Assembly (NCBI GenBank): GCA_965243565.1
Contig: OZ251571.1
Location: 905,129-969,128, forward strand
DNA from: Gammaproteobacteria bacterium
GTDB taxonomy: Bacteria; Pseudomonadota; Gammaproteobacteria; Tethybacterales; Persebacteraceae
Reading direction: 5' to 3'
Length of the DNA stretch: 64,000 bases
A model generated the notes under the pieces. That model made no database searches. It was given only the letters and a program-made list of their open reading frames with translations, and was not told the origin of the DNA. The position numbers and the translations under genes are program-made. Below are positions 6,989 through 59,904 of the stretch, one piece after another; positions within the stretch are counted from its first letter, which is position 1; every line of letters starts with the position of its first letter.

Positions 6989-7038
6989 CATTACTTTTAG
7001 ATTATTTAGAAAGCGTTATCCGTCGCTATGCTTTTGAC

Positions 7039-8781: not shown

Positions 8782-8896
8782 GATGAATTTTACCTGTCGC
8801 CTCATCTATACCGACTTCTTCTAATCCTATCCCCTGCCAACGAAATAAAAATAGAGAAAAACTCTCCAATACCAGTACACAGGGTAAAATATCACT

Positions 8897-9940: not shown

Positions 9941-10078
9941 TATATTTTTTAAAGATATATATATTAATAAGTAATTGAATATATGTATCTTTAATTGAAT
10001 ATGATTTATAAATTAATAATAAAATTTAACTAAAAATATTATTTTGTTTTACATTCCATAGAGTATAATTTCACCATT

Positions 10079-11098: not shown

Positions 11099-11330
11099 AG
11101 ATGTTTTTGTTTTATACGCAAGGCAAGAAAATGTAATGGCTTTACTTAACAATGATCTTAATGAATTAATAAAAATTGACATCGTTAAACGCACACAAAA
11201 GAGTTATCAAGCAAACATGCAACAATTACACGATATGCAACCGCCTATTGCAGAGTAAATTATTTAATTAGTTATATCCTGTATATAGCGAAAAATACGA
11301 CAACTAGCAGCAACAAACGAATTAAGCATT

Positions 11331-13348: not shown

Positions 13349-14031
13349 AGTGATATTTAGATTTAGATTTTGGTTCGGATTGTAGTTAAACGCTATTATC
13401 CGCTTATTATCCGCTATTTCCCCTTATGCCTACTGTACTCATTACCCACATCATTCACATTTCCACAGCGTTTATCTGGTAAAAATTCATCTGGCATTAT
13501 AAAACAAATTTTAACCGACTTTAACTTTTTTAGTTAGAGCCTAACTCTTGCAATGAATCATAATCTTAAAAACTGGCATGAATATTTCCAAACAGATGCG
13601 AATTGTAGAAGGATTATAGTATCCAATAAGCAGGAAAATAGTAAAAATAGAGTTTTTAGATTTTACGGAGGGAATAATTGAAATGAATGTGATGAATTAT
13701 GAATTATGCAAAGATTTCAATATATGTATATGTGTGAGTCATATTTTTGCACCTATAGATTTTTACCGCCATAGGCAGACTTGCATCGGCAAGAGGGCTA
13801 GGACTGATTAATGGTGGTTATGGCGATTAAAACCGTCGCACCAATTTCCTCTAATTATGATGACTTGGTAATTTCTTATTCTACCAAATTTACCAACATT
13901 GAGGTGGATTATGCAAAGGTCTAATACAGTGCCTAGCCACATAGTGCAATTATTATAGTGCTTATTTCATTAATTATTTGTTTTTAGCATAAAATATAAT
14001 TATTATAACTTTTTTGTTATAATGCGTTTCT

Positions 14032-15504
14032 GTGCAATACTTTCCATTCTTTCTAAATATCCACACGAAACTGGTTTTACTGGTTGGCGGTGGCGTGGTG
14101 GCACAACGTAAAGCCGACTTGCTACAAAAAGCGGGCTGCCACCTGCGTCTTGTTGCCCCGACTGTCCGTAGCGATTTGGAGGCATTATTACAGCATAATG
14201 GCACTGTCTCTAAACGCCCGTATCAACCAGATGATATTACTGGTTGTACGCTGGTGGTGTGCGCTACAAATGATGAAGCGATTAATGCACGCGTTTCTGC
14301 CGATTGCCGCCAGCGTGGCGTGCCGGTAAATGTGGTGGACTGCCCTGCTCTGTCTGATTTTATTTTTCCGGCACTGATTGACCGCTCACCGCTCACTGTT
14401 GCTGTTTCTAGTGCTGGTGCTTCGCCGGTGTTGGCGCGACGGGTGCGCGAAAAAATTGAATCTTCATTGCCAATGGCAACCGGTGCACTAGCGGTGTTTT
14501 GCGAAGAACACCGCCAAACGGTTAAAGACGCACTGCCGCCGCAGAAGCGTCGCCTGTTTTGGGAGGATGTACTGGATAGCGAAATTGCTGAAAATATATT
14601 AGCCGGTAACAGTGCCGATGCCAAGACGATGCTACTGCAACGTTTACAGCAGTTTGGTACTGACAGCGATAAAATCGGTCAGGTTTATCTGATTGGTGCT
14701 GGTCCCGGTGCAGCGGATTTACTTACTTTTCGTGCACTGCGTTTACTACAACAGGCTGATGTGGTGGTGCATGACCGTTTGGTTTCTACCGAAGTGCTGG
14801 CACTGGCGCGACGCGATGCCGAGAAAATTTTTGTCGGTAAATGCCGCAACCAACAGCTGATGAGTCAGGAAGAAATTAATCAGTTACTCATTAATCTGGC
14901 ACGTAAAAATCTGCGCGTGGCACGCCTAAAAGGTGGCGACCCGTTTATCTTTGGGCGTGGTGGCGAAGAATTACAGGCATTACGTGCTGCCAACATCCCG
15001 ACACAAATTGTACCCGGCATTACCGCCGCTAGTGGTTGCGCTGCGAGCGTGGAGATGCCGCTTACCTATCGCCATCTTGCGCGTAGCGTGCGTTTTGTTA
15101 CTGTTTATGAGCAAGATAAACAAGATGCTCATTTTTGGCAGAAACTGGCGAATGAACAGGACACGACACAGGTGTTTTATATGGCGGGGGCGACCATGGC
15201 GTTTGTTTGTGAACGCCTTATTGCCGCTGGGAGCAAACCGCAAACGCCGGCGGTGTTAATATGTGGCGGTACCACCACAGCACAGCAGCATTTTAGCGCA
15301 ACGCTAGAAACGCTACCCGCAATGGCATCATCAAAATGGTTTTCGCCGGCATTGCTGGTGGTGGGTGAAGTCGCTGCCCTTGCCCGTAAAAGTTACGATG
15401 CCATCGCTACCGCTTCTACCTCGAATGCTTCTATTGAGCATTTATTTATGAATTTACAACATGGAGAATCTCATGCTATCAACCAACCAATGGGAATCTA
15501 TTAA
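14032..15504 (+). CDS. cysG: Siroheme synthase (precorrin-2 dehydrogenase/ferrochelatase + uroporphyrinogen-III C-methyltransferase)
   Basis: N-terminal Rossmann VLLVGGGVVAQRKADLL and C-terminal methyltransferase motifs GAGPGAADLLT and GGDPFIFGRGGEE. The exact start is uncertain. Confidence 0.9.
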   Translation: MQYFPFFLNIHTKLVLLVGGGVVAQRKADLLQKAGCHLRLVAPTVRSDLEALLQHNGTVSKRPYQPDDITGCTLVVCATNDEAINARVSADCRQRGVPVNVVDCPALSDFIFPALIDRSPLTVAVSSAGASPVLARRVREKIESSLPMATGALAVFCEEHRQTVKDALPPQKRRLFWEDVLDSEIAENILAGNSADAKTMLLQRLQQFGTDSDKIGQVYLIGAGPGAADLLTFRALRLLQQADVVVHDRLVSTEVLALARRDAEKIFVGKCRNQQLMSQEEINQLLINLARKNLRVARLKGGDPFIFGRGGEELQALRAANIPTQIVPGITAASGCAASVEMPLTYRHLARSVRFVTVYEQDKQDAHFWQKLANEQDTTQVFYMAGATMAFVCERLIAAGSKPQTPAVLICGGTTTAQQHFSATLETLPAMASSKWFSPALLVVGEVAALARKSYDAIATASTSNASIEHLFMNLQHGESHAINQPMGIY

Positions 15505-17269
15505 CTCGTTAGTAGGGGATCTTAATTCCGAACAACGGCTTTGGCTTTCTGGCTATCTTGTCGGGCTGGATAATACACCGCTCGCACTGCCACCTATCGT
15601 AACTGCTGCTACTGCTAACGAAGCAACAACTGCTACACCGATAACGATTGTTTATGGGTCGCAAGGCGGCAATGGCAAGCAAATCGCCACTGCAATGGCA
15701 CAGCTACTTACCAATGTCGCTGTTGATAACCGCGTGGTGTCGCTGGCAGATTATAAAACGGCGTGGTTAAAAAAAGAGCGTTTTCTGTTTATTGTTGTCA
15801 GCACGCATGGCGAAGGCGAACCGCCTGATGATACGAAAGTATTTTATGATTTTATTTTTAGTAGTCGCGCCCCGGCACTGGCGAAACTAAAATATGCGAC
15901 ACTGGCACTGGGCGACAGCAGTTACGAGTTTTTTTGCAAAATCGGGCAGGATATTCACGAACGGTTAGAGCAACTGGGGGCGCAGGCATTGCAGTCGGTG
16001 GTGGAGTGCGATACCGATTACGAACAATCTGCGACAAAATGGCAACAAAACATCACCGACATGATGAAGCAAGAAGAGCCAAAACACAATGGTAGCAATG
16101 GTAGCAATGGTGTACTGCTACTGCCGACAACCGCTAACACCATTACCCTACCCGTCGTCGCCATCGACAACACTCCAACACGGGCGCAACCTTTTACTGC
16201 GCCGATAATTGAGCATATTATGCTTACCACACCACCACGCCGTACGCTACATATAGAGCTGGCACTAGAAGACGCAAACATAGATTATCGCCCCGGCGAT
16301 GCCATTGGTATTTTTCCACAAAACCCGCCCGCCACTGCCGACAAGGTAGCAACGACACTAGGATTAACGGCACAGCAAACACTTACCATTGACGAAGAAA
16401 CTGCTAATGTTAGTGAGTGGATGATTAAACGGTTAGACATTAGCCGCCCGACTGCTCATGCGCTAAATCGCTATCAGAAAATTATCAACAGCACTAAACT
16501 GGGCAAGCTGCTTGATGATAAAAAAGCACTTGGTAAGTATATTAATGGACGCGATTATGGCGATGTTTTTTGCGATTTTCCGCCGCTACCTGAACAGCAA
16601 AGTCAGGCACTTTCTTGCCTGCGGCGGCTGGCACCACGTTTGTATTCGCTGGCATCTTCGCGCGCGCTACGCGACGATGAGGCGCATTTACTGGTTGCCG
16701 TCAGTGACTATAACGGTCATGATACGGCAATACGCAACGGGGTATGCTCGCAGTATCTGGCAACGCAACAGGCAGGAGACACGGTAGATATTTATTTACA
16801 GCGTAATGATAATTTTCGCCTACCGACAGACGGCAATACGCCGATTATCATGATTGGACCCGGCACTGGTATCGCTCCATTTCGCGCTTTTATGGAAGAG
16901 CGTGAAGCCGCTGGCGATGCTGGTGCTAACTGGCTATTTTTTGGCAACCGCCACCGCCGTGATGAATTTTATTATCAAACCGAATGGCAGGGGTATGGTA
17001 AAAATGGTTTGCTTACACGGTTAGATGTCGCGTTTTCACGCGATGGTACGCAAAAAATATACGTGCAAGATAGACTGCAACAGCACGGTGGCGATATTTG
17101 GCAATGGTTGCAAGACGATGCACATATCTATGTCTGCGGCGATACCAACATGGCATCCGATGTACATGAACGGCTATCGGCGATTATCGGCGAACATCAC
17201 GGTGGCGACAGCAATACTTATTTACAGCAAATGCAAACTGACGGACGCTACCAACGCGATATATATTAA
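15461..17269 (+). CDS. cysJ: Sulfite reductase [NADPH] flavoprotein alpha subunit
   Basis: Flavodoxin-like N-terminus, FAD/NADPH oxidoreductase C-terminus (RLYSLASS, GPGTGIAPFRAF). Confidence 0.9.
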   Translation: MENLMLSTNQWESINSLVGDLNSEQRLWLSGYLVGLDNTPLALPPIVTAATANEATTATPITIVYGSQGGNGKQIATAMAQLLTNVAVDNRVVSLADYKTAWLKKERFLFIVVSTHGEGEPPDDTKVFYDFIFSSRAPALAKLKYATLALGDSSYEFFCKIGQDIHERLEQLGAQALQSVVECDTDYEQSATKWQQNITDMMKQEEPKHNGSNGSNGVLLLPTTANTITLPVVAIDNTPTRAQPFTAPIIEHIMLTTPPRRTLHIELALEDANIDYRPGDAIGIFPQNPPATADKVATTLGLTAQQTLTIDEETANVSEWMIKRLDISRPTAHALNRYQKIINSTKLGKLLDDKKALGKYINGRDYGDVFCDFPPLPEQQSQALSCLRRLAPRLYSLASSRALRDDEAHLLVAVSDYNGHDTAIRNGVCSQYLATQQAGDTVDIYLQRNDNFRLPTDGNTPIIMIGPGTGIAPFRAFMEEREAAGDAGANWLFFGNRHRRDEFYYQTEWQGYGKNGLLTRLDVAFSRDGTQKIYVQDRLQQHGGDIWQWLQDDAHIYVCGDTNMASDVHERLSAIIGEHHGGDSNTYLQQMQTDGRYQRDIY

Positions 17270-17288
17270 TGGCAAGCAATGGCAAACA

Positions 17289-18968
17289 ATGACAACTGAT
17301 AACAGTAAAACACCGCCACTCTCGGCAGTGGAAATTATTAAGAACAACAGCGATTATCTGCGCGGTAGTATTTGTAGCGGATTAGCCGAAGAGACCAGCG
17401 GCGCAATATTTGAAGACGACACAGTATTGGTAAAATTTCATGGCATATACCAACAAGATGACCGTGACCAGCGCGATGAACGGGCGCGGCGAAAACTGGA
17501 ACCAAACTATTCATTTATGCTACGCTTGCGTGTACCCGGCGGCTTGCTAAACGCCGAACAATGGCTTGCTGTAGATGAAGCAGCAACCACGCTCACCGAA
17601 GCCGGCAGTTTGCGGCTCACCACACGCCAAACATTGCAGTTTCACGGCATCCCCAAAGAAAACCTACGCCCATTAGTAAAAAAATGCTACCAACAACTGC
17701 TGGATTCCATTGCCGCCTGCGGTGATGTTAACCGCAATGTCATGTGTTCTCCACATCCTGACATCTCGCCGTTGCACCGTCAAGCACATGAAGTTGCTAC
17801 CGCCATCAGTGAAGCACTACTACCGACAACCCGTGCTTATTTTGAAATTTGGTTAGGCGAAGAACGGCTTGCCGACTCCACAGCAGACACAAACACCAAT
17901 GAAACGACAGACCCACTGTATGGCAAACATTATTTACCGCGAAAATTTAAAATCGGCATTGCCGTGCCACCGTCAAATGATATTGATGTTTATTCGCAAG
18001 ACATTGGTTTTATCGCCATAGCAGAAAACGGAGAATTACAGGGTTTTAATGTACTTGCTGGCGGCGGCTTAGCCACCACGCACAGCGATGAACGCACTTA
18101 TCCGCGCTTAGGCAGCGAAATCGGCTTTTGCACAGTGGCGCAAGCGGTAGAGGTTGCTTGGCACATCGCCGCTTGGCAACGCGATAATGGAGACCGTAGC
18201 GACCGCAAGCAAGCACGGCTAAAATACACAATAGATCGACGTGGTGTGGATGTTTTTGTGCAAGAATTACAGCAACGGCTAGGGTATTGTTTGCCGCCAC
18301 CACGCACGGTATCGTTAACATACCGCAGTGATTTATTAGGATGGCAGCAACGAACAGATGGGCTGTGGGACATGGGATTGTTTATTGAAAACGGCAGAAT
18401 TACCGCCGACTCACCGCTACAAAAAGCATTACAACAGATTGCGAAAAAAAACATCTGCCAATTTATGATGACGCCAAATCAAAACCTGATGTTAATCGGG
18501 CTAAACAATAGCGGCAGAAAAAAAGTACAAACGGCATTGAAAAATATATCCGATATTACCCCATCTTCTGCCCTGCGCGAAAACTCAATGGCGTGTGTGT
18601 CATTTCCAACCTGTCCGCTGGCAATGGCAGAAGCCGAACGTTATCTACCCTCATTAATTACTTTGCTGGAACAGGAATTGGAAAAACATCATCTAACAAA
18701 AGAAGCGATTAGCATTCGCATGACCGGCTGCCCCAACGGTTGCGCCCGCCCGTATATAGCAGAAATCGGATTAGTCGGAAAATCGCCCGGGCATTATAAT
18801 TTATATCTCGGTGCCTCCGCCAATGGCGACCGCATAGGCAAATTAGTCGGCGAAGGATTGACGGAACAGCTAATATTAGAAAAAATCAATCCACTACTCG
18901 CCACCTACGCTAAAAATAAAAAATCAAATGAATCCTTCGGCGATTTCGTACTGGCAACACTAATATAA
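17289..18968 (+). CDS. cysI: Sulfite reductase hemoprotein beta subunit
   Basis: Start set at MTTDNSKTPP, in frame with the longer track ORF; siroheme/4Fe-4S Cys cluster CPNGCARP near the C-terminus. Confidence 0.9.
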   Translation: MTTDNSKTPPLSAVEIIKNNSDYLRGSICSGLAEETSGAIFEDDTVLVKFHGIYQQDDRDQRDERARRKLEPNYSFMLRLRVPGGLLNAEQWLAVDEAATTLTEAGSLRLTTRQTLQFHGIPKENLRPLVKKCYQQLLDSIAACGDVNRNVMCSPHPDISPLHRQAHEVATAISEALLPTTRAYFEIWLGEERLADSTADTNTNETTDPLYGKHYLPRKFKIGIAVPPSNDIDVYSQDIGFIAIAENGELQGFNVLAGGGLATTHSDERTYPRLGSEIGFCTVAQAVEVAWHIAAWQRDNGDRSDRKQARLKYTIDRRGVDVFVQELQQRLGYCLPPPRTVSLTYRSDLLGWQQRTDGLWDMGLFIENGRITADSPLQKALQQIAKKNICQFMMTPNQNLMLIGLNNSGRKKVQTALKNISDITPSSALRENSMACVSFPTCPLAMAEAERYLPSLITLLEQELEKHHLTKEAISIRMTGCPNGCARPYIAEIGLVGKSPGHYNLYLGASANGDRIGKLVGEGLTEQLILEKINPLLATYAKNKKSNESFGDFVLATLI

Positions 18969-19307
18969 CACCGTAGTAACAAGATTTTTTTCATAGAAGC
19001 AATTGTCCCTCGATAGTTCAGTTTGTAGTGCAAGTAACTGAAATTAAAAATTCAAACCTTTAGTTGTAAATGTGAATTATGCAAATATCTCAATCTAATT
19101 CACCCCGAACGAACTGAGCCATAGAAAATACGACAGTAGCCATCAACCCTATCAGTGTCAATCGCTGGTTTTATAGGGTATGTCCAACAACTACACGATA
19201 TTGACAACCCGTAGGGCAAAATATTGTTAGGTATGCTAGAGTAAAAGCATAAAAGTTTGCAAAGTGAGATTGCAAAGTGAGATTGCAAAAATCATGAGGG
19301 GAGAATT

Positions 19308-19496
19308 ATGACAAAGCAATTAACAAAAGAGATGATTATTAATGGCGACCGTTTATGGGTGTCAATAATGGAAATGGCAAAAATCGGTCCCGGTATTGCG
19401 GGCGGTTGCAACCGTCAAACGCTCTCTGATGACGATGCCACAGGACGGGCACTTTTTCAGCAATGGTGTGGGCAGAAATTACCGTTGCTGCTGTGA
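19308..19496 (+). pseudogene. N-terminal remnant (~60 aa) of an M20-family amidohydrolase (allantoate amidohydrolase / N-carbamoyl-amino-acid hydrolase type)
   Basis: MTKQLTKEMIINGDRLWVSIMEMAKIGPGIAGGCNRQTLSDDDATGRALF resembles the conserved N-terminus of this family; a full length would be ~410 aa. The ORF stops after 62 aa and the next gene starts ~100 bp downstream. Confidence 0.45.
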
Positions 19497-23034: not shown

Positions 23035-25662
23035 TTATTTTTGCTCGGTATTATTAAGATAGAGTTCGCGACATTCACCTGGGTTTAATTTTTCAGGTAA
23101 GTGAAAACTGCCAAACCGTACCCGAATCAAACGACTGATGCCTATATCATAATGCTCGAATATACGACGGACGATTCTATTTTTGCCTTCGTTTAATATT
23201 ATTCGATACCAAGAGTTTACGCCTTCGCCTTCAATTTCTAATTTAAAATGAGACGGGCGTATAAGGTCTTTTCCTTCTAAAACCAAGCCGTTTTCTAAAA
23301 TATCAGCGATACTACTTTCATCTAACGCTCTATCTGCACGAATGCGGTATTCTCTTTCATAGCCATTAGATGGATGTGAATATTGATGTACCCAATCGCC
23401 ATTGGTTGAAAATAATAGTAGCCCTTCTGTTGCAACATCCAAACGCCCAACGCTCATCCAACGTCCGTTGTCTAATGTGGGTAAGTCTTCAAAAACAGTA
23501 TCAATTCCGTCGCTTTCGACAATTTTTCCGACGGGCTTGTAATAAGCCAACCATCTGTCTGGAATGTCTTGCACTGTGATTACTTTATCGTTGACGAGAA
23601 CTTTATCGGTCGGTGTGACGCGTTGTCCTACCGTTGCGATTTCACCGTTGACTGTGACTACACCAGATTCTATGAGTGTTTCCATTTTTCGCCGTGAACC
23701 CAAACCGGCAGTGGCAAGCATTTTTTGCAATTTTTCATCATTGTTCTTAGGTGCATTATCTACGTGAGGTCCGTTATTTAAATTAACCCATTTGCTGATT
23801 GTTTTTTCTTGAGATGGTTTTTTATCTGATTGCTCTCTATTATCGGAAAAATGAGGTTTATCATTGTCGCCTCGATCTGGTCTATCACCTCCGTTGTCAG
23901 AAAAACGGGGCTGGGCTGGGCGATCTTCATAGGGGCGATTACCACCGCCACTGTCTTTATCTGAAAATTTTGGTTTATCACCATCGCCAACTGGTCTGCC
24001 ACCGCCTGATGGTCTATCTCCATATGATGGTCTATCTCCATATGATGGTCTGCCGCCGCCTGATGGTCTATCTCCATATGATGATCTGCCGCCGCCTGAT
24101 GGTCTATCTCCAAATGGTGGTCTGCCACCGCCTGATGGTCTATCTCCATAAGATGGTCTGCCGCCGCCTGATGGTCTATCTCCATAAGATGGTCTGCCGC
24201 CGCCTGATGGTCTATCTCCATATGATGGTCTGCCACCGCCTGATGGTCTATCTCCATATGATGGTCTGCCACCGCCTGATGGTCTATCTCCATAAGATGG
24301 TCTGCCACCGCCTGATGGTCTATCTCCATAAGATGGTCTGCCGCCGCCTGATGGTCTATCTCCACGAGATGGTCTGCCGCCGCCTGATGGTCTATCTCCA
24401 TATGATGGTCTGCCACCGCCTGATGGTCTATCTCCATAAGATGGTCTGCCTCCGCCTGATGGTCTATCTCCATATGATGGTCTGCCACCGCCTGATGGTC
24501 TATCTCCATAAGATGGTCTGCCACCGCCTGATGGTCTATCTCCATATGATGGTCTGCCACCGCCTGATGGTCTATCTCCATAAGATGGTCTGCCGCCGCC
24601 TGATGGTCTATCTCCATATGATGGTCTGCCGCCGCCTGATGGTCTATCTCCATATGATGGTCTGCCACCGCCTGATGGTCTATCTCCATATGATGGTCTG
24701 CCGCCGCCTGATGGTCTATCTCCATAAGATGGTCTGCCGCCGCCTGATGGTCTATCTCCATATGATGGTCTGCCACCGCCTGATGGTCTATCTCCATAAG
24801 ATGGTCTGCCGCCGCCTGATGGTCTATCTCCATATGATGGTCTGCCTCCGCCTGATGGTCTATCTCCATATAATGGTCTGCCGCCGCCTGATGGTCTATC
24901 TCCATATGATGGTCTGCCTCCGCCTGATGGTCTATCTCCATATGATGGTCTGCCACCGCCTGATGGTCTATCTCCATAAGATGGTCTGCCTCCGCCTGAT
25001 GGTCTGCCACCGCCTGATGGTCTATCTCCATAAGATGGTCTGCCGCCGCCTGATGGTCTATCTCCATATGATGGTCTGCCGCCGCCTGATGGTCTATCTC
25101 CATGAGATGGTCTGCCACCACCTGATGGTCTATCTCCATGAGATGGTCTGCCACCGCCTGATGGTCTATCTCCATAAGATGGTCTGCCACCGCCTGATGG
25201 TCTATCTCCATAAGATGGTCTGCCGCCGCCTGATGGTCTATCTCCATATGATGGTCTGCCACCGCCTGATGGTCTATCTCCATAAGATGGTCTGCCGCCG
25301 CCTGATGGTCTATCTCCATGAGATGGTCTGCCACCGCCTGATGGTCTATCTCCATAAGATGGTCTGCCGCCGCCTGATGGTCTATCTCCATAAGATGGTC
25401 TGCCACCGCCTGATGGTCTATCTCCATATGATGGTCTGCCACCGCCTGATGGTCTATCTCCATATGATGGTCTGCCACCACCTGATGGTCTATCTCCAAA
25501 TGGTGGTCTGCCGAATCTTGGTCTGTCGCCTGATGAGGCTTTGTCAAAGTCGCTGCGCGGTCTATCGCTTGTTTTGTTGTGTCGTGAGGAATCGTTAGAT
25601 GTATTTTTTACGTCGGCAGAATTGGTTGATTGAGATTTTGTCTCGTCTTTTTGTGGTGTCAT
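23035..25662 (-). CDS. rluB: 23S rRNA pseudouridine synthase RluB with a ~640-aa N-terminal low-complexity (SYGDRPSGGGRP)n extension
   Basis: C-terminal 233 aa are a canonical S4 domain + RsuA/RluB catalytic domain (EKLQKMLATAGLGSRRKMETLIESG...GRLDVATEGLLLF). Upstream, in the same frame, ~42 twelve-residue repeats. Conserved scpA-scpB-rluB synteny, 55-bp gap to scpB. Confidence 0.8.
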   Translation of the reverse strand: MTPQKDETKSQSTNSADVKNTSNDSSRHNKTSDRPRSDFDKASSGDRPRFGRPPFGDRPSGGGRPSYGDRPSGGGRPSYGDRPSGGGRPSYGDRPSGGGRPSYGDRPSGGGRPSHGDRPSGGGRPSYGDRPSGGGRPSYGDRPSGGGRPSYGDRPSGGGRPSYGDRPSGGGRPSHGDRPSGGGRPSHGDRPSGGGRPSYGDRPSGGGRPSYGDRPSGGGRPSGGGRPSYGDRPSGGGRPSYGDRPSGGGRPSYGDRPSGGGRPLYGDRPSGGGRPSYGDRPSGGGRPSYGDRPSGGGRPSYGDRPSGGGRPSYGDRPSGGGRPSYGDRPSGGGRPSYGDRPSGGGRPSYGDRPSGGGRPSYGDRPSGGGRPSYGDRPSGGGRPSYGDRPSGGGRPSYGDRPSGGGRPSYGDRPSGGGRPSYGDRPSGGGRPSRGDRPSGGGRPSYGDRPSGGGRPSYGDRPSGGGRPSYGDRPSGGGRPSYGDRPSGGGRPSYGDRPSGGGRPSYGDRPSGGGRPPFGDRPSGGGRSSYGDRPSGGGRPSYGDRPSYGDRPSGGGRPVGDGDKPKFSDKDSGGGNRPYEDRPAQPRFSDNGGDRPDRGDNDKPHFSDNREQSDKKPSQEKTISKWVNLNNGPHVDNAPKNNDEKLQKMLATAGLGSRRKMETLIESGVVTVNGEIATVGQRVTPTDKVLVNDKVITVQDIPDRWLAYYKPVGKIVESDGIDTVFEDLPTLDNGRWMSVGRLDVATEGLLLFSTNGDWVHQYSHPSNGYEREYRIRADRALDESSIADILENGLVLEGKDLIRPSHFKLEIEGEGVNSWYRIILNEGKNRIVRRIFEHYDIGISRLIRVRFGSFHLPEKLNPGECRELYLNNTEQK
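23992..25512. repeat. Tandem array of ~42 copies of a 36-bp unit (GGTCTGCCACCGCCTGATGGTCTATCTCCATATGAT) inside the rluB 5' region
   Basis: Direct visual periodicity of 36 bp across ~1.5 kb; one 18-bp half-unit variant. Substitutions are mostly at positions synonymous in the RluB frame. Confidence 0.95.
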
Positions 25663-51394: not shown

Positions 51395-52849
51395 ATGAAT
51401 AACATTGATACCAAAAACTACATTGCCAATGAATGGATTGATTCCCAAAATCACATCGAAAATATTAACCCTTCGGATACATCCGATGTTATTGGAAATT
51501 TTTCCCAAGCCACTACGGATGATTTAGAAAAAGCAGTTGATGCCGCAACGGCATCGCTTAGCCAATGGCGTGCGGTAGGTCTAGAAGCACGGCAAAATAT
51601 GCTGAACACCATCGGCAATGAGATGATGGCTAGGGCAGAAGAGTTAGGACAGTTACTTGCCCGTGAAGAAGGCAAAACAGCCGCCGAAGGCAAAGGTGAA
51701 GTGTATCGTGCTGGTCAGTTTTTTACCTATTACGCTGCTGAAGTATTACGCCAAATTGGCGAAAATTCCTTGTCGGTTCGCCCAAATATCGAAATTGATG
51801 TTCGCCGTGAACCTGTGGGCGTTGTTGCAGTTATCTCACCTTGGAACTTTCCGACTGCAACTGCAAGTTGGAAAATCGCCCCAGCACTTGCATTTGGCAA
51901 TGCGGTTATCTGGAAACCAGCTAACTTAACCCTTGCCTCTGCCGTTGCATTGACCGAAATCATCTCACGGGCAGGTTTGCCATCAGGCGTTTTTCAGTTA
52001 TTAATGGGCAGCGGTGATGCCATTGGCAATACATTGGTATCGCATCCGGGCGTTAATGCCATTAGTTTTACCGGCTCTTATACGGTTGGGAAAAAAGTAG
52101 CAACTCAAGCGGCATCGCATTTTGCAAAAGTACAATTAGAATTGGGTTCTAAAAATGCCTTAACAGTAATGGAAGATGCCGACATTGACGCTGCTGTTAC
52201 TGCCTCTTTGGTTGGGGCTTTTTCTAGCACTGGACAAAAATGCACGGCATCGTCTCGATTGCTCATTCATGAAAAAATTCATGATGAATTTGTCGATAAA
52301 CTACAAGCAGCCATGCGTGGGTTTACTGTCGGGCATTCGCAAGATCCATCTTCAAAAATGGGCCCTGTTGCTAGCCAAGTGCAATATGATTCAAATATGG
52401 CTTGGTTGGCAAGAGCAAAGGCAGAAAACATCGAAGTATTGACTCATGATTTACAACTCACCACCGATAAAAAAGGTTATTATATGGCACCAGCATTGTT
52501 GCTAAATACCACCAATGACATGTTGCTAAATCGTGAAGAAATGTTTGCACCAATCGCCTCCGTCCAAAAAATAAACTCTTACGAACAAGCTTTGTCAATA
52601 AGTAATAATACCGATTACGGATTAGTAGCAGGTATATTCACACAATCACTTGCACGGGCTTCTCATTTTCGGCAGTATTCGCAATCGGGCTGTGTTATGG
52701 TTAACTTGCCAACAGCAGGCACCGATTACCATGTGCCATTTGGCGGTAGAAAAAATTCCAGCTATGGCTCGCGTGAACAAGGGCGTATTGCGGCTGAATT
52801 TTATACCCATATTAAAACGGCTTATACCAATGCAGGAATACCTTCGTAA
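51395..52849 (+). CDS. NAD(P)-dependent aldehyde dehydrogenase
   Basis: 484 aa; catalytic Glu in LELGSKNA and catalytic Cys in GQKCTASSRL. Confidence 0.85.
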   Translation: MNNIDTKNYIANEWIDSQNHIENINPSDTSDVIGNFSQATTDDLEKAVDAATASLSQWRAVGLEARQNMLNTIGNEMMARAEELGQLLAREEGKTAAEGKGEVYRAGQFFTYYAAEVLRQIGENSLSVRPNIEIDVRREPVGVVAVISPWNFPTATASWKIAPALAFGNAVIWKPANLTLASAVALTEIISRAGLPSGVFQLLMGSGDAIGNTLVSHPGVNAISFTGSYTVGKKVATQAASHFAKVQLELGSKNALTVMEDADIDAAVTASLVGAFSSTGQKCTASSRLLIHEKIHDEFVDKLQAAMRGFTVGHSQDPSSKMGPVASQVQYDSNMAWLARAKAENIEVLTHDLQLTTDKKGYYMAPALLLNTTNDMLLNREEMFAPIASVQKINSYEQALSISNNTDYGLVAGIFTQSLARASHFRQYSQSGCVMVNLPTAGTDYHVPFGGRKNSSYGSREQGRIAAEFYTHIKTAYTNAGIPS

Positions 52850-52855
52850 AACATC

Positions 52856-53827
52856 ATGACATTATCGCCACTTATCGACTGCCTACAATACGCTAATTGG
52901 TCTGAAAAAATCTTCAGACAAATGCGCGAAGGCAATGTGCATGCGGTGCATGTTACCATTGCTTATCATGAAAATTTTCGCCAGACCGTACAAAACATAC
53001 AAGCATGGAATGATCATTTCAGAAACCATGCTAATTTAATTTTTCATGGTAGAACGGCTGCCGATATTAACCACGCTATCGCCACCAACCGCACTGCCAT
53101 ATTTTTTGGCACGCAAACAGCAGCGCCGATTGAAGAGGATATTGGCTTGGTTGAAGTCTGCCACACACTGGGTATTCGTTTTATGCAGCTCACCTATAAC
53201 AACCAATCGTTATTGGGTACGGGTTTTTGTGAGGAACACGATAGCGGCATTACCCGCTTTGGGCGTGAGGTTATTGCCGAGATGAATCGCGTTGGCATTG
53301 TTGTCGATATGAGCCATTCGGCTGAACGCACCACTTTAGAGGCTATTGATTTATCAACCCGCCCTATTGCCATTACCCACGCCAACCCCACATGGTGGGA
53401 AGCAGGCAAACGCAATAAATCAAATGAAGTCATTGAAGCATTGGTAGCCAAAGGCGGCATGTTGGGTTTTTCGATATACCCGAATCATCTAAAAGATGGC
53501 AGCGACTGTAGTTTGGATGGTTTTTGCGAAATGATTGCCGAATGTAGCAGCCGCTATGGAGTCGAACATTTGGGCATTGGTAGCGATTTATGCCAAGACC
53601 AACCCGATAGCATTGTGCAATGGATGCGTGAAGGCACTTGGAAAAAATCAAAAAAAGATGAGACCGCTAAGTTTCCACCACAGCCGACATGGTTTGTTGA
53701 TAATCGCAATTTTATAACCATTGCCGAAGGCTTACACAAAAATGGCTTTAGTACCACCGATATACAAGCCATTATGGGTGGCAATTGGCATCGTTTTTAT
53801 GAGCATTCATTTACTGCATCACTATAG
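52856..53827 (+). CDS. Membrane dipeptidase (peptidase M19 family)
   Basis: 323 aa; HVTIAYHENF..., DMSHSAERT, ITHANP motifs of M19/renal-dipeptidase-like proteins. Confidence 0.8.
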   Translation: MTLSPLIDCLQYANWSEKIFRQMREGNVHAVHVTIAYHENFRQTVQNIQAWNDHFRNHANLIFHGRTAADINHAIATNRTAIFFGTQTAAPIEEDIGLVEVCHTLGIRFMQLTYNNQSLLGTGFCEEHDSGITRFGREVIAEMNRVGIVVDMSHSAERTTLEAIDLSTRPIAITHANPTWWEAGKRNKSNEVIEALVAKGGMLGFSIYPNHLKDGSDCSLDGFCEMIAECSSRYGVEHLGIGSDLCQDQPDSIVQWMREGTWKKSKKDETAKFPPQPTWFVDNRNFITIAEGLHKNGFSTTDIQAIMGGNWHRFYEHSFTASL

Positions 53828-53894
53828 TAATAATGATAAATGACGATGGGATTAACTATAAATACCTCTATAAAGTGGTGTAAATAATAAGCAG

Positions 53895-55577
53895 ATGCAA
53901 TCAACCAACGTTTGCCAAAACATATTACGCCCACCCCAGCAAATTATGTCACTGGCACGGATTGGTACGTTTTACCCAACGCGGCTTAGTTTTATGCGGC
54001 AGTTAATACGGCGTTTACACAACGCTGATACAACGGTAAAAAAAACCCGATGGGCGATTGATAGCGATGGCTTTGGCGATGCGGTGTATTCGGTAACGCT
54101 AGAGGGTGATACCTATAGTTTGGTTGTTTTTTCTAACCATATTACGCCAGACCAACGCACCGACCGCGTTATTGCCGAACAGTGGGACATAACCTTTGTG
54201 CTTTATGATGGGATTCCCGATGATGCCGAAGTAGAACGCTTACGCCAACAAGCACCAAAACAAGAAAAAGGTCGCTACAGCGAAAAAGAATTGGTATTAA
54301 GCCGTGCCAATAAATCGGTGCGTTTGTTTGAACATGTCGTACAAAGTCTTGCCGCTGGCAAGCAGCCTGATGTTGATAAAATATCATCCATTGGCTACCT
54401 TATGCGTACCACCGCTGTCTATGGCAATGGCAAGTTTGGCATTGCCGACCGTGCGTATTATGCCCACCGCCCGGCATTGGCATCGCCTTTTCAAGTAGAA
54501 ATGTTAGCGGTTTGGTTGGTGCGTAGTTTTACGCATGATTTAGTTGATTATATCGCTCATACAAAGGCACCCAGCACTGCGGTTAAATTAGACCCTACTT
54601 ATAAACAATGGTTGGGTATTGGCAATTCAACAGGATTAGGCATGGCACCTTTCTTGGTGCGGCATCCTATTTTGCTTAATAATTGGATGATAGCGAAAGA
54701 AGTCGCATTAACCCGTATATGCGCAAAAGAACATGCCTCAAAAGATGAGTATCAACGTATTTTAACCTTGTTGAATCGAGCAATAACCCACGTCAACGAA
54801 TGGAGCGTAGAAGATGCTGTACAAATGCAGCGTATTTTAACCATCAGAAAAGAATTACCACAATTACATGCGCGGTATTTGCGATATTCCAATGCCACTT
54901 TGTTTTTGCAAAAACAGTTCTATGAATCCACAAGAGCTTATTGTGAAGAATGTCAAGAGTTGGTTATTTCATTGCTGATAGAAGCACATCCTACTCTAGT
55001 GGATGATTTGGCAAAAGGCATGGGTTCTGATGATTTCTATTGCTTGCAACCCGCCATGTCGTTAGCAACATTAAAAACGATTATAGAAGAACAATGTCAA
55101 TGGGCGTTAGCGTTTGATTTTTCAACCAAAATCGCCAATGAAAAATTTTGGTACGTATCAGAAGAAAAACTAGAGCCTCGTCTTGGCAATCGTTATCAAG
55201 AAAGCGGTAGCGAAAAAGAAATGCCGCTGGATATCGCCCGCCAAATACAAAGCCTAGCAAACGATATAAAGCAATGCGAATTAACAATGAATGTTGCCTC
55301 TTTTTTGCAAAAATACCCGAAGCATCGCTATTGTATGAGGCGTGTGCAAAACTTCCCCAATTATCCTTATGCAGAAATTCATGACAACCTTGTCGGTAGC
55401 CATTGCTTGCCCATAGATTTATTGCGGTGCAAACTTTCTTTTTTTGGTGCGACTAAATTTGATCCAAAATCAGACCGCTGGACACGGGTTAATTTGTTTC
55501 AAGGTGCTCCTACCATCGATACAATCACCAATGATGATGCAGATGATTGGTGGTTGCCAAAAAATCCATTGATGTGA
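53895..55577 (+). CDS. Hypothetical protein (560 aa), no recognisable domain
   Basis: Long uninterrupted ORF with codon usage like its neighbours; no motif I can assign. Confidence 0.4.
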   Translation: MQSTNVCQNILRPPQQIMSLARIGTFYPTRLSFMRQLIRRLHNADTTVKKTRWAIDSDGFGDAVYSVTLEGDTYSLVVFSNHITPDQRTDRVIAEQWDITFVLYDGIPDDAEVERLRQQAPKQEKGRYSEKELVLSRANKSVRLFEHVVQSLAAGKQPDVDKISSIGYLMRTTAVYGNGKFGIADRAYYAHRPALASPFQVEMLAVWLVRSFTHDLVDYIAHTKAPSTAVKLDPTYKQWLGIGNSTGLGMAPFLVRHPILLNNWMIAKEVALTRICAKEHASKDEYQRILTLLNRAITHVNEWSVEDAVQMQRILTIRKELPQLHARYLRYSNATLFLQKQFYESTRAYCEECQELVISLLIEAHPTLVDDLAKGMGSDDFYCLQPAMSLATLKTIIEEQCQWALAFDFSTKIANEKFWYVSEEKLEPRLGNRYQESGSEKEMPLDIARQIQSLANDIKQCELTMNVASFLQKYPKHRYCMRRVQNFPNYPYAEIHDNLVGSHCLPIDLLRCKLSFFGATKFDPKSDRWTRVNLFQGAPTIDTITNDDADDWWLPKNPLM

Positions 55578-55586
55578 TTTTTTCCA

Positions 55587-56207
55587 ATGTATTCCATTGA
55601 TGAAACCAACCGATTAATCGAAAAAGCCGCTTTGGGTTGCGGGCTTCCCATTGGTTTAGCCGAAACGCTTGCCAATGCCAGCATCTGGTGTTGCCAACAA
55701 AACTTACAAGGCGCACAGTGGGCTTTAAACGCACTACATGGCATTGCTTTAGGCAAGCGATTTAACCCTGCAATACAGGGTATGAGTTGTTTTGAAAATC
55801 TGCTTGTAGAACCCACTCAAACCATAACGTTAAGAGCGATAGATACGGCAGGATTAATGCTTGGCTATGGCGGTGTGGCGTGTCTCCACTATATCAATGA
55901 GATTTGCTCTTTGACTTTAAATTTCGATGGCAAATCGATTGTAGTTAATAAAGATTGCATTGAAATCGAATCAACAAACGAACCCTTTTTATTGGAAAAT
56001 TTAGAGACGGTGACAGATTGCTTAACCGTGTCATTACTAAAAAAGCAATCACAATTAAACAACACAAATAAGCGACTCCCGACCCGTTTGACAATAGACA
56101 GCAAAACATGGCAAATGCTATCGACTCTCGCTGCCAAAACCTATGTCGAGGCAAATAGTTTTTCCAAGCAATTTGGTGCCGGTGCTGGTACGACTGACAA
56201 CGATTAA
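55587..56207 (+). CDS. Hypothetical protein (206 aa)
   Basis: Starts 10 bp after the previous ORF and is likely co-transcribed; Cys-rich; no assignable family. Confidence 0.4.
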   Translation: MYSIDETNRLIEKAALGCGLPIGLAETLANASIWCCQQNLQGAQWALNALHGIALGKRFNPAIQGMSCFENLLVEPTQTITLRAIDTAGLMLGYGGVACLHYINEICSLTLNFDGKSIVVNKDCIEIESTNEPFLLENLETVTDCLTVSLLKKQSQLNNTNKRLPTRLTIDSKTWQMLSTLAAKTYVEANSFSKQFGAGAGTTDND

Positions 56208-56264
56208 TATTGTCTTAGTCTTATTGCGTTTTGCTTATTTCGCAAAAATAAGATTTAAGACAAG

Positions 56265-58712
56265 CTACTGAGACGTTTTTTTGCGTAGGCGTAAGCCATC
56301 GGGGTCGTATGCGGCTGTGCTCATGGCACGCCCTTTTTCTACATCGTCGCCAACTAATACGGTAACCCGAAAACTACCATCGCTGTCTTTTGTCGTGGGA
56401 ATGCCTTCACATTTTATAAGTGCAATGCCCACCGGCATTTGGATGCGGTATCCATGTGCTGCTGAGGTTAATCGTCCAATAATCTTGTCGTTATAGCAAA
56501 CAGGTTCATCTTTCCATATCGTTGCATTAGGGTTATCCAATACAACAGTTAAAAATTGATAATTTAATCCGTTTTCTTTTTGTTCTAATAGTTTGTCACT
56601 ACCAAGAAAAGGGATATTTAAGTCAACCGCAAAATCCAAGCCTGCATCTAATGGCGTAACGTCGCTGTCGAGATCTTGACCATAAGCCAAAAAGCGTTTT
56701 TCGATTCGCATTGATGCCAATGCATAAGCACCAGCGGGTTTTGCCCCTGCTTCTGCCAGTACATCAAATATCTTTTGCGTGTCTTCTATTGCACAAGTGA
56801 TTTCCCAACCGGGTTCACCAACAAAGGATAAGCGTGCGGCTCGAACTTCACAACCAGCAATGGTGGTTTCCTTGCAACCAAAATAAGCAATATCATTGAG
56901 ATCGTTTGCCCCAATTTGAGTCGCTATACTGCCTGTTTCTGGTCCAAAAATGCCCAATACTGCCCATTTTTCAGTTTCATCTATTATAGAGACATCATCA
57001 GCTGGTCTTTTACCATGAATTAGCCAAGCCATGTCACGGCGTATGGTATCGGCATCCACATACATCACATATTTGTCTTCGGCAACACGGTGGACGGTTA
57101 AATCGCTTTCAATGCCACCTGTTTTATCTAACATGGTAGTGTAAATAACACGTCCTACTTTTTTATCCATATTGTTGGCACACCACTGGTTAAGAAATTT
57201 ACAGGCATCACTGCCTTCGACAACAATTTTTCCTAAAATTGATAGTTCAAATATGGCAGCGTGATTGTGCGTTTGTGCGACTTCTTGCGCTACATTGTTA
57301 AACCATGCGGGGCGTTTAAAGGTGAGTTCTGGTTCTTCAGTTTTATTAAAGTACAATGGTCTTTCCCAACCATAGTGCTGACCGAAATGTGCGCCATGTT
57401 TTTGCCATGTTTCATGTAGTGGCGTAAATCGTAAGTTTCGGGCAGAGCTGGGTTGCCACCCGGGGAATGGAATTTGATAGGCATGTCCTAAGATTTCGGG
57501 CGCACGTGCTGATAGGGCTTCAATAGAATTAAAACATTCTGGGAATCGATTCGGATTAACCTCTGACAAGGCAAATGGCATATGACCATGTGCAATGCAA
57601 TGAGCAAGTGCATTGCCAGCACCGCCACTGGTGGCGACTCCAACTGAATTCATGCCACATCCAACATACAGCCCTTTGGTACGAGCGGTTTCACCCAGCA
57701 TAAACATACCATCGGCAACAAAACTTTCAGGACCATTTAACAATGTTTTTATTTCAGCGGTTTCAAGGGCAGGAATACGATGTAAAGCGTTTTCCATCAT
57801 CGGTTCAAAGTGGTCCCAGTCTTCTTGTAATAGTTGAAAAGCAAAGTTTTTTCCTAGTTTTTCGGGCGAGATTGCTTTGGCTCCGGGTTCAAAACTACCG
57901 ACCAACAGACCACCTGAATCGTCTCGTACATAAAGACAGGAATCATAATCAAATAATGTTGGAATATTGCCTTTTAGAGCATCAATGGGTTTGGTTAACA
58001 TGTAAAAATGCTCGCAGGGCCATAATGGCAGATGTGTGCCATACGGTTTTAAGACATCGCGACTCCACAAGCCGCTGCATATAACTACTTTGTCGCACCG
58101 AATACGCCCCTTGTTGGTTTTAACAGCAACGATTTTGTTATTGCTAAATTCAATTCCCTCTAAAGAAGTGTGTTCAAAAATTTGTTGCCCTTTGTTTTTT
58201 GCCCCTTTGACCAGCGCGGCGCATAGGTCGGATACACTCACACGACCGTCTTCGGGTGACCAAACCCCACCTAGTACATCGGTATTTTGCATCAGGGGCC
58301 AGCGTTCTTTTGCCTCACCAGCACTGATATAACTGGCTTCAATGCCAAATAAATGTGATAGGTTTTTTTGGCGGCGCAAATGAGTTAAGCGTTCTGGATT
58401 GGTGGCAATAGATACCGAGCCTTTACCTATCCAGCCAGTGGACTGCCCTGTCTCTTCTTCTAGGCTTTTATACAAACCTTGTGAGTATCGAATTAATCGG
58501 GTTAAATTTTCGGTTTGTCGTAAGCCACGCACCAATGCTGCCGAGTGCCATGTAGTACCGGATGTGAGCTCGTTTCTTTCGAGCAATACCGCATCAGTAA
58601 TACCGTGAAGACCCAAGTGATACAGAGTAGAACACCCCATCACGCCACCGCCGATAACGACTACTGACGCATTATCTGGAAAATCTGTTGTTATAAAATC
58701 ACTAATCTTCAT
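56265..58712 (-). CDS. Dimethylglycine/sarcosine-dehydrogenase-like flavoenzyme (FAD oxidoreductase fused to a GcvT-type folate-binding aminomethyltransferase domain)
   Basis: 815 aa; N-terminal FAD motif VVVIGGGVMGCSTLYHL, C-terminal GcvT-like domain; size typical of DMGDH/SARDH. Confidence 0.8.
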   Translation of the reverse strand: MKISDFITTDFPDNASVVVIGGGVMGCSTLYHLGLHGITDAVLLERNELTSGTTWHSAALVRGLRQTENLTRLIRYSQGLYKSLEEETGQSTGWIGKGSVSIATNPERLTHLRRQKNLSHLFGIEASYISAGEAKERWPLMQNTDVLGGVWSPEDGRVSVSDLCAALVKGAKNKGQQIFEHTSLEGIEFSNNKIVAVKTNKGRIRCDKVVICSGLWSRDVLKPYGTHLPLWPCEHFYMLTKPIDALKGNIPTLFDYDSCLYVRDDSGGLLVGSFEPGAKAISPEKLGKNFAFQLLQEDWDHFEPMMENALHRIPALETAEIKTLLNGPESFVADGMFMLGETARTKGLYVGCGMNSVGVATSGGAGNALAHCIAHGHMPFALSEVNPNRFPECFNSIEALSARAPEILGHAYQIPFPGWQPSSARNLRFTPLHETWQKHGAHFGQHYGWERPLYFNKTEEPELTFKRPAWFNNVAQEVAQTHNHAAIFELSILGKIVVEGSDACKFLNQWCANNMDKKVGRVIYTTMLDKTGGIESDLTVHRVAEDKYVMYVDADTIRRDMAWLIHGKRPADDVSIIDETEKWAVLGIFGPETGSIATQIGANDLNDIAYFGCKETTIAGCEVRAARLSFVGEPGWEITCAIEDTQKIFDVLAEAGAKPAGAYALASMRIEKRFLAYGQDLDSDVTPLDAGLDFAVDLNIPFLGSDKLLEQKENGLNYQFLTVVLDNPNATIWKDEPVCYNDKIIGRLTSAAHGYRIQMPVGIALIKCEGIPTTKDSDGSFRVTVLVGDDVEKGRAMSTAAYDPDGLRLRKKTSQ

Positions 58713-58796: not shown

Positions 58797-59904
58797 ATGT
58801 TATTAGACAGTAGTGAAATTCGTGCAACAATCTCTGAAGGTGAAAAAATGCTCAAGGAGATAAGGGGGTTCCTTTAATGTTGATGATAAAAAAAATCAAC
58901 TAATCGAGGTTGACCTTCAGCTCATAGATCCTTCTATATGGTCAGATACAGAGCTGGTAAAGCAACACCAACAATTACGAGGACGGTTAATCAAAGACAT
59001 TAACGATGTTGAAACCATCGAAAAACGGTTAACAGATCTTATCGAAATGTTAGATTTGGCGATAGAAGAAGAAATCGATGATTTAATCGAGGAAATTTCA
59101 TTACAGTCTCAACAATTACTTGATGAAATTCAAGCCCTTAATATTCGTCGTTTATTTAGCGGTGAGCATGATAGATCCCATGCGTTTTTAAGCGTTCAAT
59201 CAGGATCAGGCGGAACCGAAGCACAAGATTGGGCTGCTATACTGTATCGCATGTACTTGCGTTATGCCGAAGAAAACAACTACAAAGTAGAGGTAATGGA
59301 AGAAGCGTTGGGTGAAGTCGCCGGCATAAAAGGTGCAACCATTAAGATTATAGGCGATTACGCCTATGGATATTTACGCCTAGAAACAGGTATTCACCGC
59401 TTGGTTCGTAAATCGCCATTTGATTCCAACCACAAAAGGCACACCTCATTTGCCAGTATTTTCGTATTCCCCGTCATTGATGATTCCTTTCAAGTCGATA
59501 TTAATCCCACCGATTTACGCATTGATACCTATCGTTCTAGCGGTGCGGGTGGGCAGCATGTTAACACCACTGATTCAGCCGTTCGTATTACACATTTACC
59601 GACTAATATTGTTGTGCAATGTCAAAGCGATAGATCTCAACACAAAAATAAAGCAAGCGCGATGTCAATGCTTAAAGCACGATTACATCAACACGAACTA
59701 GACCAACGTAATGTCGAAAAAAACAAACTAGAAGATAGCAAAGATGATATCGGCTGGGGCAGACAAATCCGCTCTTACGTATTAGACCAATCCCGTATTA
59801 AAGATTTACGCACTGGTTTTGAAAGCGGCAATACGCGATCAGTTTTGGACGGTGGTTTGGATGGATTTATTCGCGCAGAACTTTTAATGGACGCAAGTGA
59901 ATAA
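58797..59904 (+). CDS. prfB: Peptide chain release factor 2, with programmed +1 ribosomal frameshift at 58872-58878 (CTT TAA T)
   Basis: A 26-codon ORF0 (MLLDSSEIRATISEGEKMLKEIRGFL*) is preceded by an internal SD-like AAGGGGG. The +1 frame continues directly into the RF2 body (SPF motif, GGQHVNTTDSAVRITH). Confidence 0.9.

Follow-up and report, generated by a model that had tools for sequence, protein, structure and literature searches.

Phytoplankton and marine invertebrates contain homarine (N-methylpicolinate) as one of their most abundant small nitrogen metabolites. The present analysis concerns a four-gene cluster at positions 51395-56207 of a 64-kb stretch of a gammaproteobacterial genome (assembly GCA_965243565.1, contig OZ251571.1; the whole stretch is called the window hereafter). 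The four genes, in the order homD-homC-homB-homA, very probably form the core of an operon for homarine catabolism. The closest described system is the homarine operon homABCDER, which was defined in marine bacteria by Ferrer-Gonzalez et al. (Nat Microbiol, March 2026; PMC13236597). In Cobetia sp. OBi1 (ACFLL8_11490-11520), the genes are arranged as homE-homA-homB-homT (transporter)-homC (peptidase)-homD (aldehyde dehydrogenase-like)-homR, and the hom genes of Ruegeria pomeroyi are SPO3188-3192 (PMC13236597). In that work homA is about 700 nt and homB about 1,700 nt long, homA and homB lie side by side in 97.7% of 11,755 genomes, and homE is variable and mostly missing from Alphaproteobacteria. 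Mutants in homB, homC, homD and homR showed no growth on homarine (PMC13236597).

The same genetic and metabolomic data show that the pyridinium ring of homarine opens before demethylation, while the nitrogen keeps its methyl group. Homarine is converted to N-methylglutamate and then to glutamate, and features with the formulas C7H9NO5, C6H9NO4 and C6H9NO3 accumulate (PMC13236597). The mgdA and mgdD mutants of R. pomeroyi grew significantly less on both homarine and N-methylglutamate, a phenotype in favour of N-methylglutamate dehydrogenase (mgdABCD) as the enzyme that turns N-methylglutamate into glutamate. Removal of the methyl group by this enzyme gives formaldehyde or methylene-tetrahydrofolate. 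A Vibrio isolate without mgd also grows on homarine (PMC13236597).

Probable identity as a hom gene cluster

The cluster is composed of four genes on the plus strand. The first encodes a NAD(P)-dependent aldehyde dehydrogenase (ALDH) of 484 aa (51395-52849; Pfam Aldedh, 509 bits), followed by an M19-family amidohydrolase ('membrane dipeptidase') of 323 aa from a non-canonical subfamily (52856-53827; Pfam Peptidase_M19, 235 bits). The third gene (53895-55577; 1,683 nt) encodes a 560-aa protein, and the fourth (55587-56207; 621 nt) a 206-aa protein with a weak match to DUF3726. The gaps between them are 6, 67 and 9 nt. On the minus strand, a gene for an 815-aa flavin adenine dinucleotide (FAD) and folate enzyme of the dimethylglycine dehydrogenase (DMGDH)/sarcosine dehydrogenase family (56265-58712) converges on the cluster and ends 57 nt past the 206-aa gene. 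A preliminary description of the window, made from the sequence alone, had named these five open reading frames (ORFs), and all of them are present in the ORF table exactly as described. Its labels for the ALDH, M19 and DMGDH-type genes and for thyA-folA upstream agree with Pfam. It had described the four plus-strand genes as overlapping or abutting; they abut and do not overlap. Its statement that the last two proteins have no recognisable domain holds for the 560-aa protein, which has no match in Pfam, NCBIfam or PDB sequences, but not entirely for the 206-aa protein, whose one match in these three collections is a sub-threshold DUF3726.

The relation to homarine came from loci with an informative context. 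A Phaeobacter inhibens plasmid locus shows a LysR regulator next to ALDH, membrane dipeptidase, BCCT transporter, hypothetical protein, DUF3726 protein and Ldh family oxidoreductase genes in this order. It continues with a convergent 806-aa FAD oxidoreductase, and sarcosine-oxidase-like genes are near. A Pseudomonas plasmid locus resembles it, and both carry homologues of all four window genes. The betaine-like context of these two loci led to a search for pyridine-betaine catabolism and from there to the homarine operon. Their BCCT and Ldh_2 genes stand at the positions which homT and homE occupy in Cobetia, and these genes were assigned as homT and homE in the other loci accordingly.

In the window, the ALDH is assigned as HomD, the M19 protein as HomC, the 560-aa protein as HomB, and the 206-aa protein as HomA, an orthology which we consider highly likely because gene order, gene lengths, predicted functions, the positions of homT and homE in other loci, and the taxa all match. 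The window genes for the 560-aa and 206-aa proteins measure 1,683 and 621 nt, against about 1,700 nt for homB and 700 nt for homA in the published work. The same four core genes are present in the same order as in the published operon, homA and homB are adjacent, and the taxonomic range is shared: loci of the homB type come from SAR116, Rhodobacterales, Gammaproteobacteria and Vibrio, as in the published work. The gene SPO3188 (homA) is annotated as 'hypothetical protein'. The preliminary description had proposed that these genes serve the breakdown of an N-methylated compound of the osmolyte type, and this is borne out by the matched operon, which degrades homarine (PMC13236597). The two unassigned proteins find their place as pathway components, HomB and HomA, and the predicted chemistry of amide hydrolysis, aldehyde oxidation and folate-linked N-demethylation fits the homarine pathway. 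The pathway is not novel as had been supposed, the operon having been published in March 2026 (PMC13236597).

Several points weigh against this identification. It was made from order, length, function and distribution, without direct alignment to the tested genes SPO3188-3191 and ACFLL8_11495-11515. Unlike in the published operon, no homR, homT or homE adjoins the window copy, which sits between folA and the DMGDH-family gene. No LysR, BCCT, Ldh_2 or sox/mgd gene was found among the surveyed ORFs of the window, and the scan of window ORFs for HTH_1/LysR gave no match. In HomC, the M19 profile is unmatched over its first 33 positions, and glutamine takes the place of the bridging glutamic acid. 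The authors of the operon propose a TgnAB-like flavin pair for HomAB (PMC13236597); no flavin domain was found in the two proteins here, though they may still bind flavin. The assignment of individual steps is drawn from the metabolite formulas, by our own arithmetic, and from knowledge of the protein families.

Conservation of the module across genomes

The gene neighbourhood was surveyed with one genome per species. At least 590 genomes with a relative of the 560-aa protein were found and 80 loci were fetched, to which two loci from exact look-ups and four annotated plasmid loci were added; counts are given over 82-85 loci. Neighbours were counted by tblastn and by our own clustering of ORFs. 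The homB family is large, comprising 1,752 clusters at 50% identity and over 8,000 at 90%, and is annotated only as 'hypothetical'. The surveyed taxa are mostly marine and include Rhodobacteraceae, SAR116/Puniceispirillales, Rhizobiaceae, Gammaproteobacteria, Acidimicrobiales, Poribacteria and Myxococcota; a distant homB copy was found on a haloarchaeal plasmid.

The M19-homB-homA triad is kept in most of the 85 surveyed loci. Of 82 loci, 71 contain the M19 gene, which almost without exception directly precedes homB, and the DUF3726 gene (homA) directly follows homB in at least 64 loci. About 21 loci, roughly a quarter, have an ALDH gene upstream. In 11 loci, this ALDH is orthologous (53-65% identity) and directly precedes the M19 gene, while about 10 Rhodobacteraceae loci possess a different ALDH (about 32% identity) at the same place. 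An Ldh_2 oxidoreductase gene follows directly after the DUF3726 gene in 18 of 85 loci, and a divergent LysR regulator is present in at least nine related loci. Other recurring neighbours are OpuAC-type ATP-binding cassette (ABC) or BCCT transporters, an M24 peptidase and a class-III alcohol dehydrogenase. The neighbourhood survey suggested in the preliminary description thus finds the triad conserved and the ALDH in about a quarter of the loci. The refuting condition named there, orthologues of the two unassigned genes outside this context, does not refute the proposal: the two genes are almost always together and beside the M19 gene. Both are real genes.

The breadth of the homB family also raises the question of substrate. 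With 1,752 clusters at 50% identity, a family of this size could hold pathways for other pyridine or cyclic betaines, such as trigonelline or N-methylpipecolate/proline-betaine derivatives, and the window copy could be a hom paralogue of this kind. Distant clusters with 29-31% identity on pSymB of S. meliloti and on a Natrinema plasmid are accompanied by IclR regulators and other transporters, and the Pseudomonas plasmid locus is placed among proline-betaine-type genes, both of which agree with such a paralogue. However, HomB of the window shares 50-59% identity with the principal marine clade (SAR116, Rhodobacterales), whose taxa are those reported for the operon, and the window gene order is that of the published operon. 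A paralogue with another substrate is therefore quite improbable here, and the assignment to homarine is preferred.

The distant clusters themselves (L084, S. meliloti pSymB, 8250-19338; L166, Natrinema versiforme plasmid, 4035-12285; HomB paralogues at 29-31% identity) contain IclR regulators together with a gene for an M19 protein or an ALDH, transporters of the ABC or BCCT type, and genes for succinate-semialdehyde dehydrogenase and RidA. Pathways for other pyridine or cyclic betaines may be encoded here, and the clusters extend into Archaea.

HomB and HomA

The AlphaFold2 model of HomB is confident, with a predicted local distance difference test score (pLDDT) of 82.9 and a predicted template modelling score (pTM) of 0.87. 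Comparison of this model with PDB and BFVD by Foldseek gave no meaningful match (best E value 0.029, template modelling score at most 0.13). The alignment of 26 homologues contains about 125 invariant columns. HomB is presumed to be the catalytic subunit of the ring-opening step.

HomA shows a sub-threshold match to DUF3726 (PF12525; E value 3.5e-4), and its orthologues are annotated as DUF3726; a literature search on 'DUF3726' found nothing. A single-sequence search with the 206-aa protein recovers only HomA itself, and a profile built from locus-derived orthologues was needed. In the family alignment the N-terminus is conserved and the middle is variable, and the extreme C-terminus is an invariant TYVPxSExSRxxGAGAGLxDND followed by the stop. 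The tail of the window protein reads GAGAGTTDND. The AlphaFold2 model of HomA (pTM 0.78) matches 3i0p, 4fjs, 1xrh, 1v9n and 1s20 with Foldseek probabilities of 0.97-1.0 and query-normalised template modelling scores (TMq) of 0.41-0.52. Type-2 malate/lactate dehydrogenases, ureidoglycolate dehydrogenase and YiaK are among the matches. The structural check which the preliminary description had suggested for the two proteins thus gives no structural neighbour for HomB and the Ldh_2 fold for HomA.

The resemblance of HomA to the Ldh_2 family (PF02615) is limited to the N-terminal part, on which the model superposes with a TMq of 0.4-0.5. A full-length Ldh_2 gene (homE) often follows homA. In contrast to the Ldh_2 enzymes, HomA has only about 60% of their length, shows no PF02615 match in Pfam and carries its own invariant C-terminal tail. 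In profile-profile alignment of HomA with HomE by hhalign (probability 27%, 60 columns), a gap stands opposite 'ERDG-SHG', and the catalytic SHG segment is deleted. As judged from the model and this alignment, HomA is a truncated relative of the type-2 malate/lactate dehydrogenases without the catalytic histidine motif. Rather than binding FAD, it probably serves as a non-catalytic partner that descends from an Ldh_2 enzyme. Pfam and NCBIfam detect no flavin or NAD domain in HomA or HomB. The only GxGxG-like motif is the GAGAG at the extreme C-terminus of HomA, which is disordered in the model (pLDDT below 50) and does not lie in a beta-alpha-beta/Rossmann unit. This GAGAG is probably what was read as 'FAD-binding motif' in the published work.

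Natural fusions of the two proteins were found in the family. Among the best homB family representatives, 40 have at least 700 aa. Those of about 800 aa are HomB-HomA fusions, in which DUF3726 is situated in the C-terminal part and the GAGAG..DND tail is kept. In more distant family proteins of 840-960 aa, the C-terminal part is longer and Ldh_2-like. Both a complex of HomA with HomB and an Ldh_2 origin of HomA are supported by the fusions. Individual cases of about 800 aa are P0194, P0197, P0202 and P0220. The distant fusions P0304, P0309 and P0337 (900-960 aa) possess an Ldh_2-like C-terminal part with another conserved end, ..LVP..E..RLRP..DPLK.F.

A different role for the C-terminus of HomA, as a scaffold peptide similar to those of ribosomally synthesised and post-translationally modified peptides (RiPPs) or PEARLs with the M19 enzyme as tail trimmer, was considered and ruled out by the catabolic context. 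It was rejected because transporters, LysR and ALDH recur at these loci and because the published mutants show a growth-substrate phenotype.

HomD and HomC

In NCBIfam, HomD scores best against alpha-ketoglutaric semialdehyde and 2,5-dioxovalerate dehydrogenases without reaching either cut-off. Among the named ALDH families NF042993 (alpha-ketoglutaric semialdehyde dehydrogenase) scores highest, yet with 475 bits HomD stays below its cut-off of 770 and is no member. HomD and the ALDH of the Phaeobacter hom-type locus share 62.5% identity. In the published operon, deletion of homD, called 'aldehyde dehydrogenase-like', abolishes growth on homarine (PMC13236597).

HomC is far above the PF01244 gathering score (235 against a cut-off of 26 bits) and covers profile positions 34-317. 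Its N-terminal motif IDxLQYxNWS...AVHVTIAYHE is conserved across orthologues and reads IDCLQYANWS in the window protein. In canonical M19 enzymes, as seen in the structures of DPEP1 and Sco3058, the ligands of the binuclear zinc site are an N-terminal HxD, a bridging glutamic acid and two histidines. When HomC was aligned to 3id7 (Sco3058), the glutamic acid of 'GAEGGH' paired with a glutamine, while the histidines of 'DxSH' and 'xSH' were kept. These residues suggest that the metal site may be remodelled and that HomC may not be a classical binuclear-zinc hydrolase.

The closest solved structure of HomC is 2i5g, a 325-aa 'amidohydrolase' (E value 1.4e-56). This short type leads to another family of operons. 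Pseudomonas aeruginosa and Vibrio natriegens have a 325-aa M19 dipeptidase and a small hypothetical protein before dgcAB (PA5396-PA5397 in Pseudomonas), so that an M19-type amidohydrolase of about 325 aa and a small uncharacterised protein again stand in an operon for an N-methyl compound. On this ground the M19 gene and its neighbours in the window could be accessory genes of glycine betaine/dimethylglycine catabolism, with the 815-aa enzyme as a true dimethylglycine dehydrogenase, and the best PDB matches of this enzyme are indeed dimethylglycine dehydrogenases. However, the small dgc protein belongs to DUF5943 (177 aa) and not to DUF3726, the dgc operon is linked to dgcAB and has no HomB homologue, no dgcAB is present in the window, and the published phenotype of homB, homC and homD mutants is loss of growth on homarine (PMC13236597). 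A role in dimethylglycine catabolism is thus very improbable, and the homarine assignment is retained. An earlier consideration of PA5397 as a DUF3726 protein was dropped, this protein being DUF5943.

Proposed pathway

Trigonelline catabolism by the tgn cluster of Acinetobacter baylyi, reportedly described by Perchat et al. in 2018, offers a second system for comparison. TgnAB is a flavin-dependent two-component oxygenase. The trigonelline pathway was cited by the authors of the homarine operon as an analogy for HomAB (PMC13236597). In both pathways, the ring of an N-methylpyridinium carboxylate is opened with the N-methyl group kept, an N-methylformamido intermediate is formed and the formula C7H9NO5 is common. 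Oxidation of an aldehyde or lactol by a dehydrogenase is followed by amide hydrolysis in each case. The two differ in the ring-opening proteins, as HomB has no detectable flavin or known domain and the fold of HomA is Ldh_2-like and not that of a flavin reductase. They also differ in the end product, which is N-methylglutamate in the hom pathway and succinate with methylamine in the tgn pathway.

For the hom pathway, HomB and HomA are placed as one unit because their genes are adjacent and are fused in some genomes. This unit would reduce and oxygenate (or hydrate) the pyridinium ring and cleave C5-C6, giving N-formyl-N-methyl-2,3-dehydroglutamate 5-semialdehyde (C7H9NO4). HomD would oxidise the aldehyde to the diacid N-formyl-N-methyl-2,3-dehydroglutamate, which corresponds to C7H9NO5. 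Classical M19 enzymes are dehydropeptidases which cleave N-acyl-dehydroamino acids. HomC would remove the formyl carbon as formate, yielding N-methyl-dehydroglutamate or N-methyl-2-iminoglutarate (C6H9NO4), a step which would explain why homarine has seven carbons and N-methylglutamate only six. An imine reductase would then form N-methyl-L-glutamate. The Ldh_2 family includes the piperideine-2-carboxylate/N-methyl-amino-acid reductase DpkA, and for this reason HomE, where present, fits the role; no HomE was found among the surveyed ORFs of this window. Finally, an N-demethylase would release glutamate and a folate-bound one-carbon unit, for which a candidate here is the adjacent DMGDH-family enzyme. 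The formulas C7H9NO5, C6H9NO4 and C6H9NO3 fit the assigned intermediates.

A wider reading of these observations is offered only tentatively. HomB and HomA might form a new kind of ring-opening enzyme acting on N-methylpyridinium carboxylates, in which a catalytic subunit of unseen fold works with a degenerate Ldh_2 partner whose invariant GAGAGLxDND tail reaches into the active site, without a classical flavin or Rieske module. In the same reading, the DMGDH-type enzyme would be the missing tetrahydrofolate-dependent N-methylglutamate demethylase where homE, and perhaps mgdABCD, is absent; a gap of this kind is noted in the published work for the Vibrio isolate that grows on homarine without mgd (PMC13236597).

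The DMGDH-family gene and thyA-folA

The 815-aa enzyme shows all four domains DAO, FAO_M, GCV_T and GCV_T_C above the Pfam cut-offs, and its best PDB matches are rat and human DMGDH (390-395 bits). No NCBIfam equivalog reached its cut-off. Taken in full, the model of the preliminary description would make this gene an obligatory partner in one novel pathway, in which thyA-folA, ALDH, M19, the two unassigned proteins and the DMGDH-like enzyme act together and thyA-folA recycle the folate one-carbon units. All these genes are contiguous, and the homarine pathway does end in a folate-linked demethylation. The Phaeobacter locus carries a member of the DMGDH family at the same convergent position, though it is only 33% identical to the 815-aa enzyme. 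Against the full scheme, only 5 of 85 hom loci have a DMGDH-, sox- or mgd-like gene at a distance of up to 10 kb, and none of the 80 closest metagenomic relatives of the enzyme (53-59% identity) adjoins hom genes. Instead, these relatives sit with RpiR, an amino-acid ABC transporter, a class-III aminotransferase and BKACE. The adjacency to the DMGDH-type gene is therefore not conserved.

The genes thyA (49991-50806) and folA (50828-51349) lie directly upstream of the cluster, with folA next to homD. These are housekeeping genes in housekeeping surroundings, and their position beside the triad recurs in one other locus only. The link to thyA-folA drawn in the preliminary description is not supported, and the adjacency in the window looks incidental. 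That one pathway comprises all of these genes is unlikely.

The one other case, among 84 loci, is a Hyphomicrobiales metagenome-assembled genome (L026, 4166-5428), in which thyA-folA are directly downstream of M19-homB-homA. This adjacency is probably a coincidence.

As a component of the homarine pathway, the 815-aa enzyme stays a reasonable candidate because the pathway needs an N-methylglutamate demethylase and because a Vibrio isolate without mgd grows on homarine; that it serves as this demethylase is less likely than not. Two Vibrio plasmid loci were sought by a distant DNA search for demethylase genes and were not among the matches listed.

The clade of close relatives has a context of its own. 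The flanks of its loci (L086-L165) contain an RpiR/SIS regulator (30 loci), a family-3 substrate-binding protein amino-acid ABC transporter (19-24), a class-III aminotransferase (18) and a BKACE enzyme (13). This context looks like an N-methyl amino acid module and points to an imported amino-acid-like substrate.

Other features of the window

The region around the cluster is composed of housekeeping genes, including uvrA, pmbA, prfB, cytochromes b562/b561, dapB, fur and lolA (Pfam, NCBIfam). Rfam found no rRNA in the window. A weak promoter-like site on the plus strand is situated in the 3' end of folA (51315-51342; TTTACC-16-TAAAAT, 9 of 12 matches), 53 nt 5' of the homD start. In the promoter scan such sites were rarer than in shuffled sequence, so this site is a consensus match only.

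Beyond the 815-aa gene follows prfB (release factor 2; 58797-59904, plus strand). A programmed +1 frameshift site of the classical kind, including a Shine-Dalgarno-like AGGGGG, is present in it, but TAA (CTT TAA T) takes the place of the usual TGA as in-frame stop. The uvrA gene is split on the plus strand (45022-47843) into two ORFs which overlap and differ in frame, one of 506 aa with the N-terminal domains (45022-46542) and one of 442 aa corresponding to residues of about 500-942 of UvrA (46515-47843). The split implies a frameshift near 46515-46542, which would be due to a pseudogene or an assembly error. An RluB-like pseudouridine synthase is encoded at 23035-25662 on the minus strand, with the S4 and PseudoU_synth_2 domains in the last approximately 230 aa and an N-terminal extension of about 640 aa. 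The extension is located in a stretch of odd composition (GC 0.51 against about 0.39 around it, AT skew -0.29).

At 41620-42915 on the minus strand, a 431-aa protein consists almost entirely of ankyrin repeats (Ank_2, 287 bits), which is unusual for free-living bacteria. It may hint at a host-associated bacterium which feeds on the homarine of an invertebrate or algal host.

Possible meaning of the locus for homarine catabolism

The breakdown route of homarine was genetically defined only in 2026 (PMC13236597), and the window locus adds a compact, regulator-less hom copy in a low-GC genome. What is new in this analysis is the HomB fold without PDB match, HomA as an Ldh_2 relative, the HomB-HomA fusions, and the HomC metal site. 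Together they offer hypotheses on the enzymology of the pathway, in which HomB would have a fold of its own, HomA would be an Ldh_2-derived partner which is fused to it in some genomes, HomC would act with an altered metal site, and the route would run through N-formyl-N-methyl-dehydroglutamate. In such a pathway, a DMGDH-type enzyme may stand in for N-methylglutamate dehydrogenase, an enzyme of four subunits.

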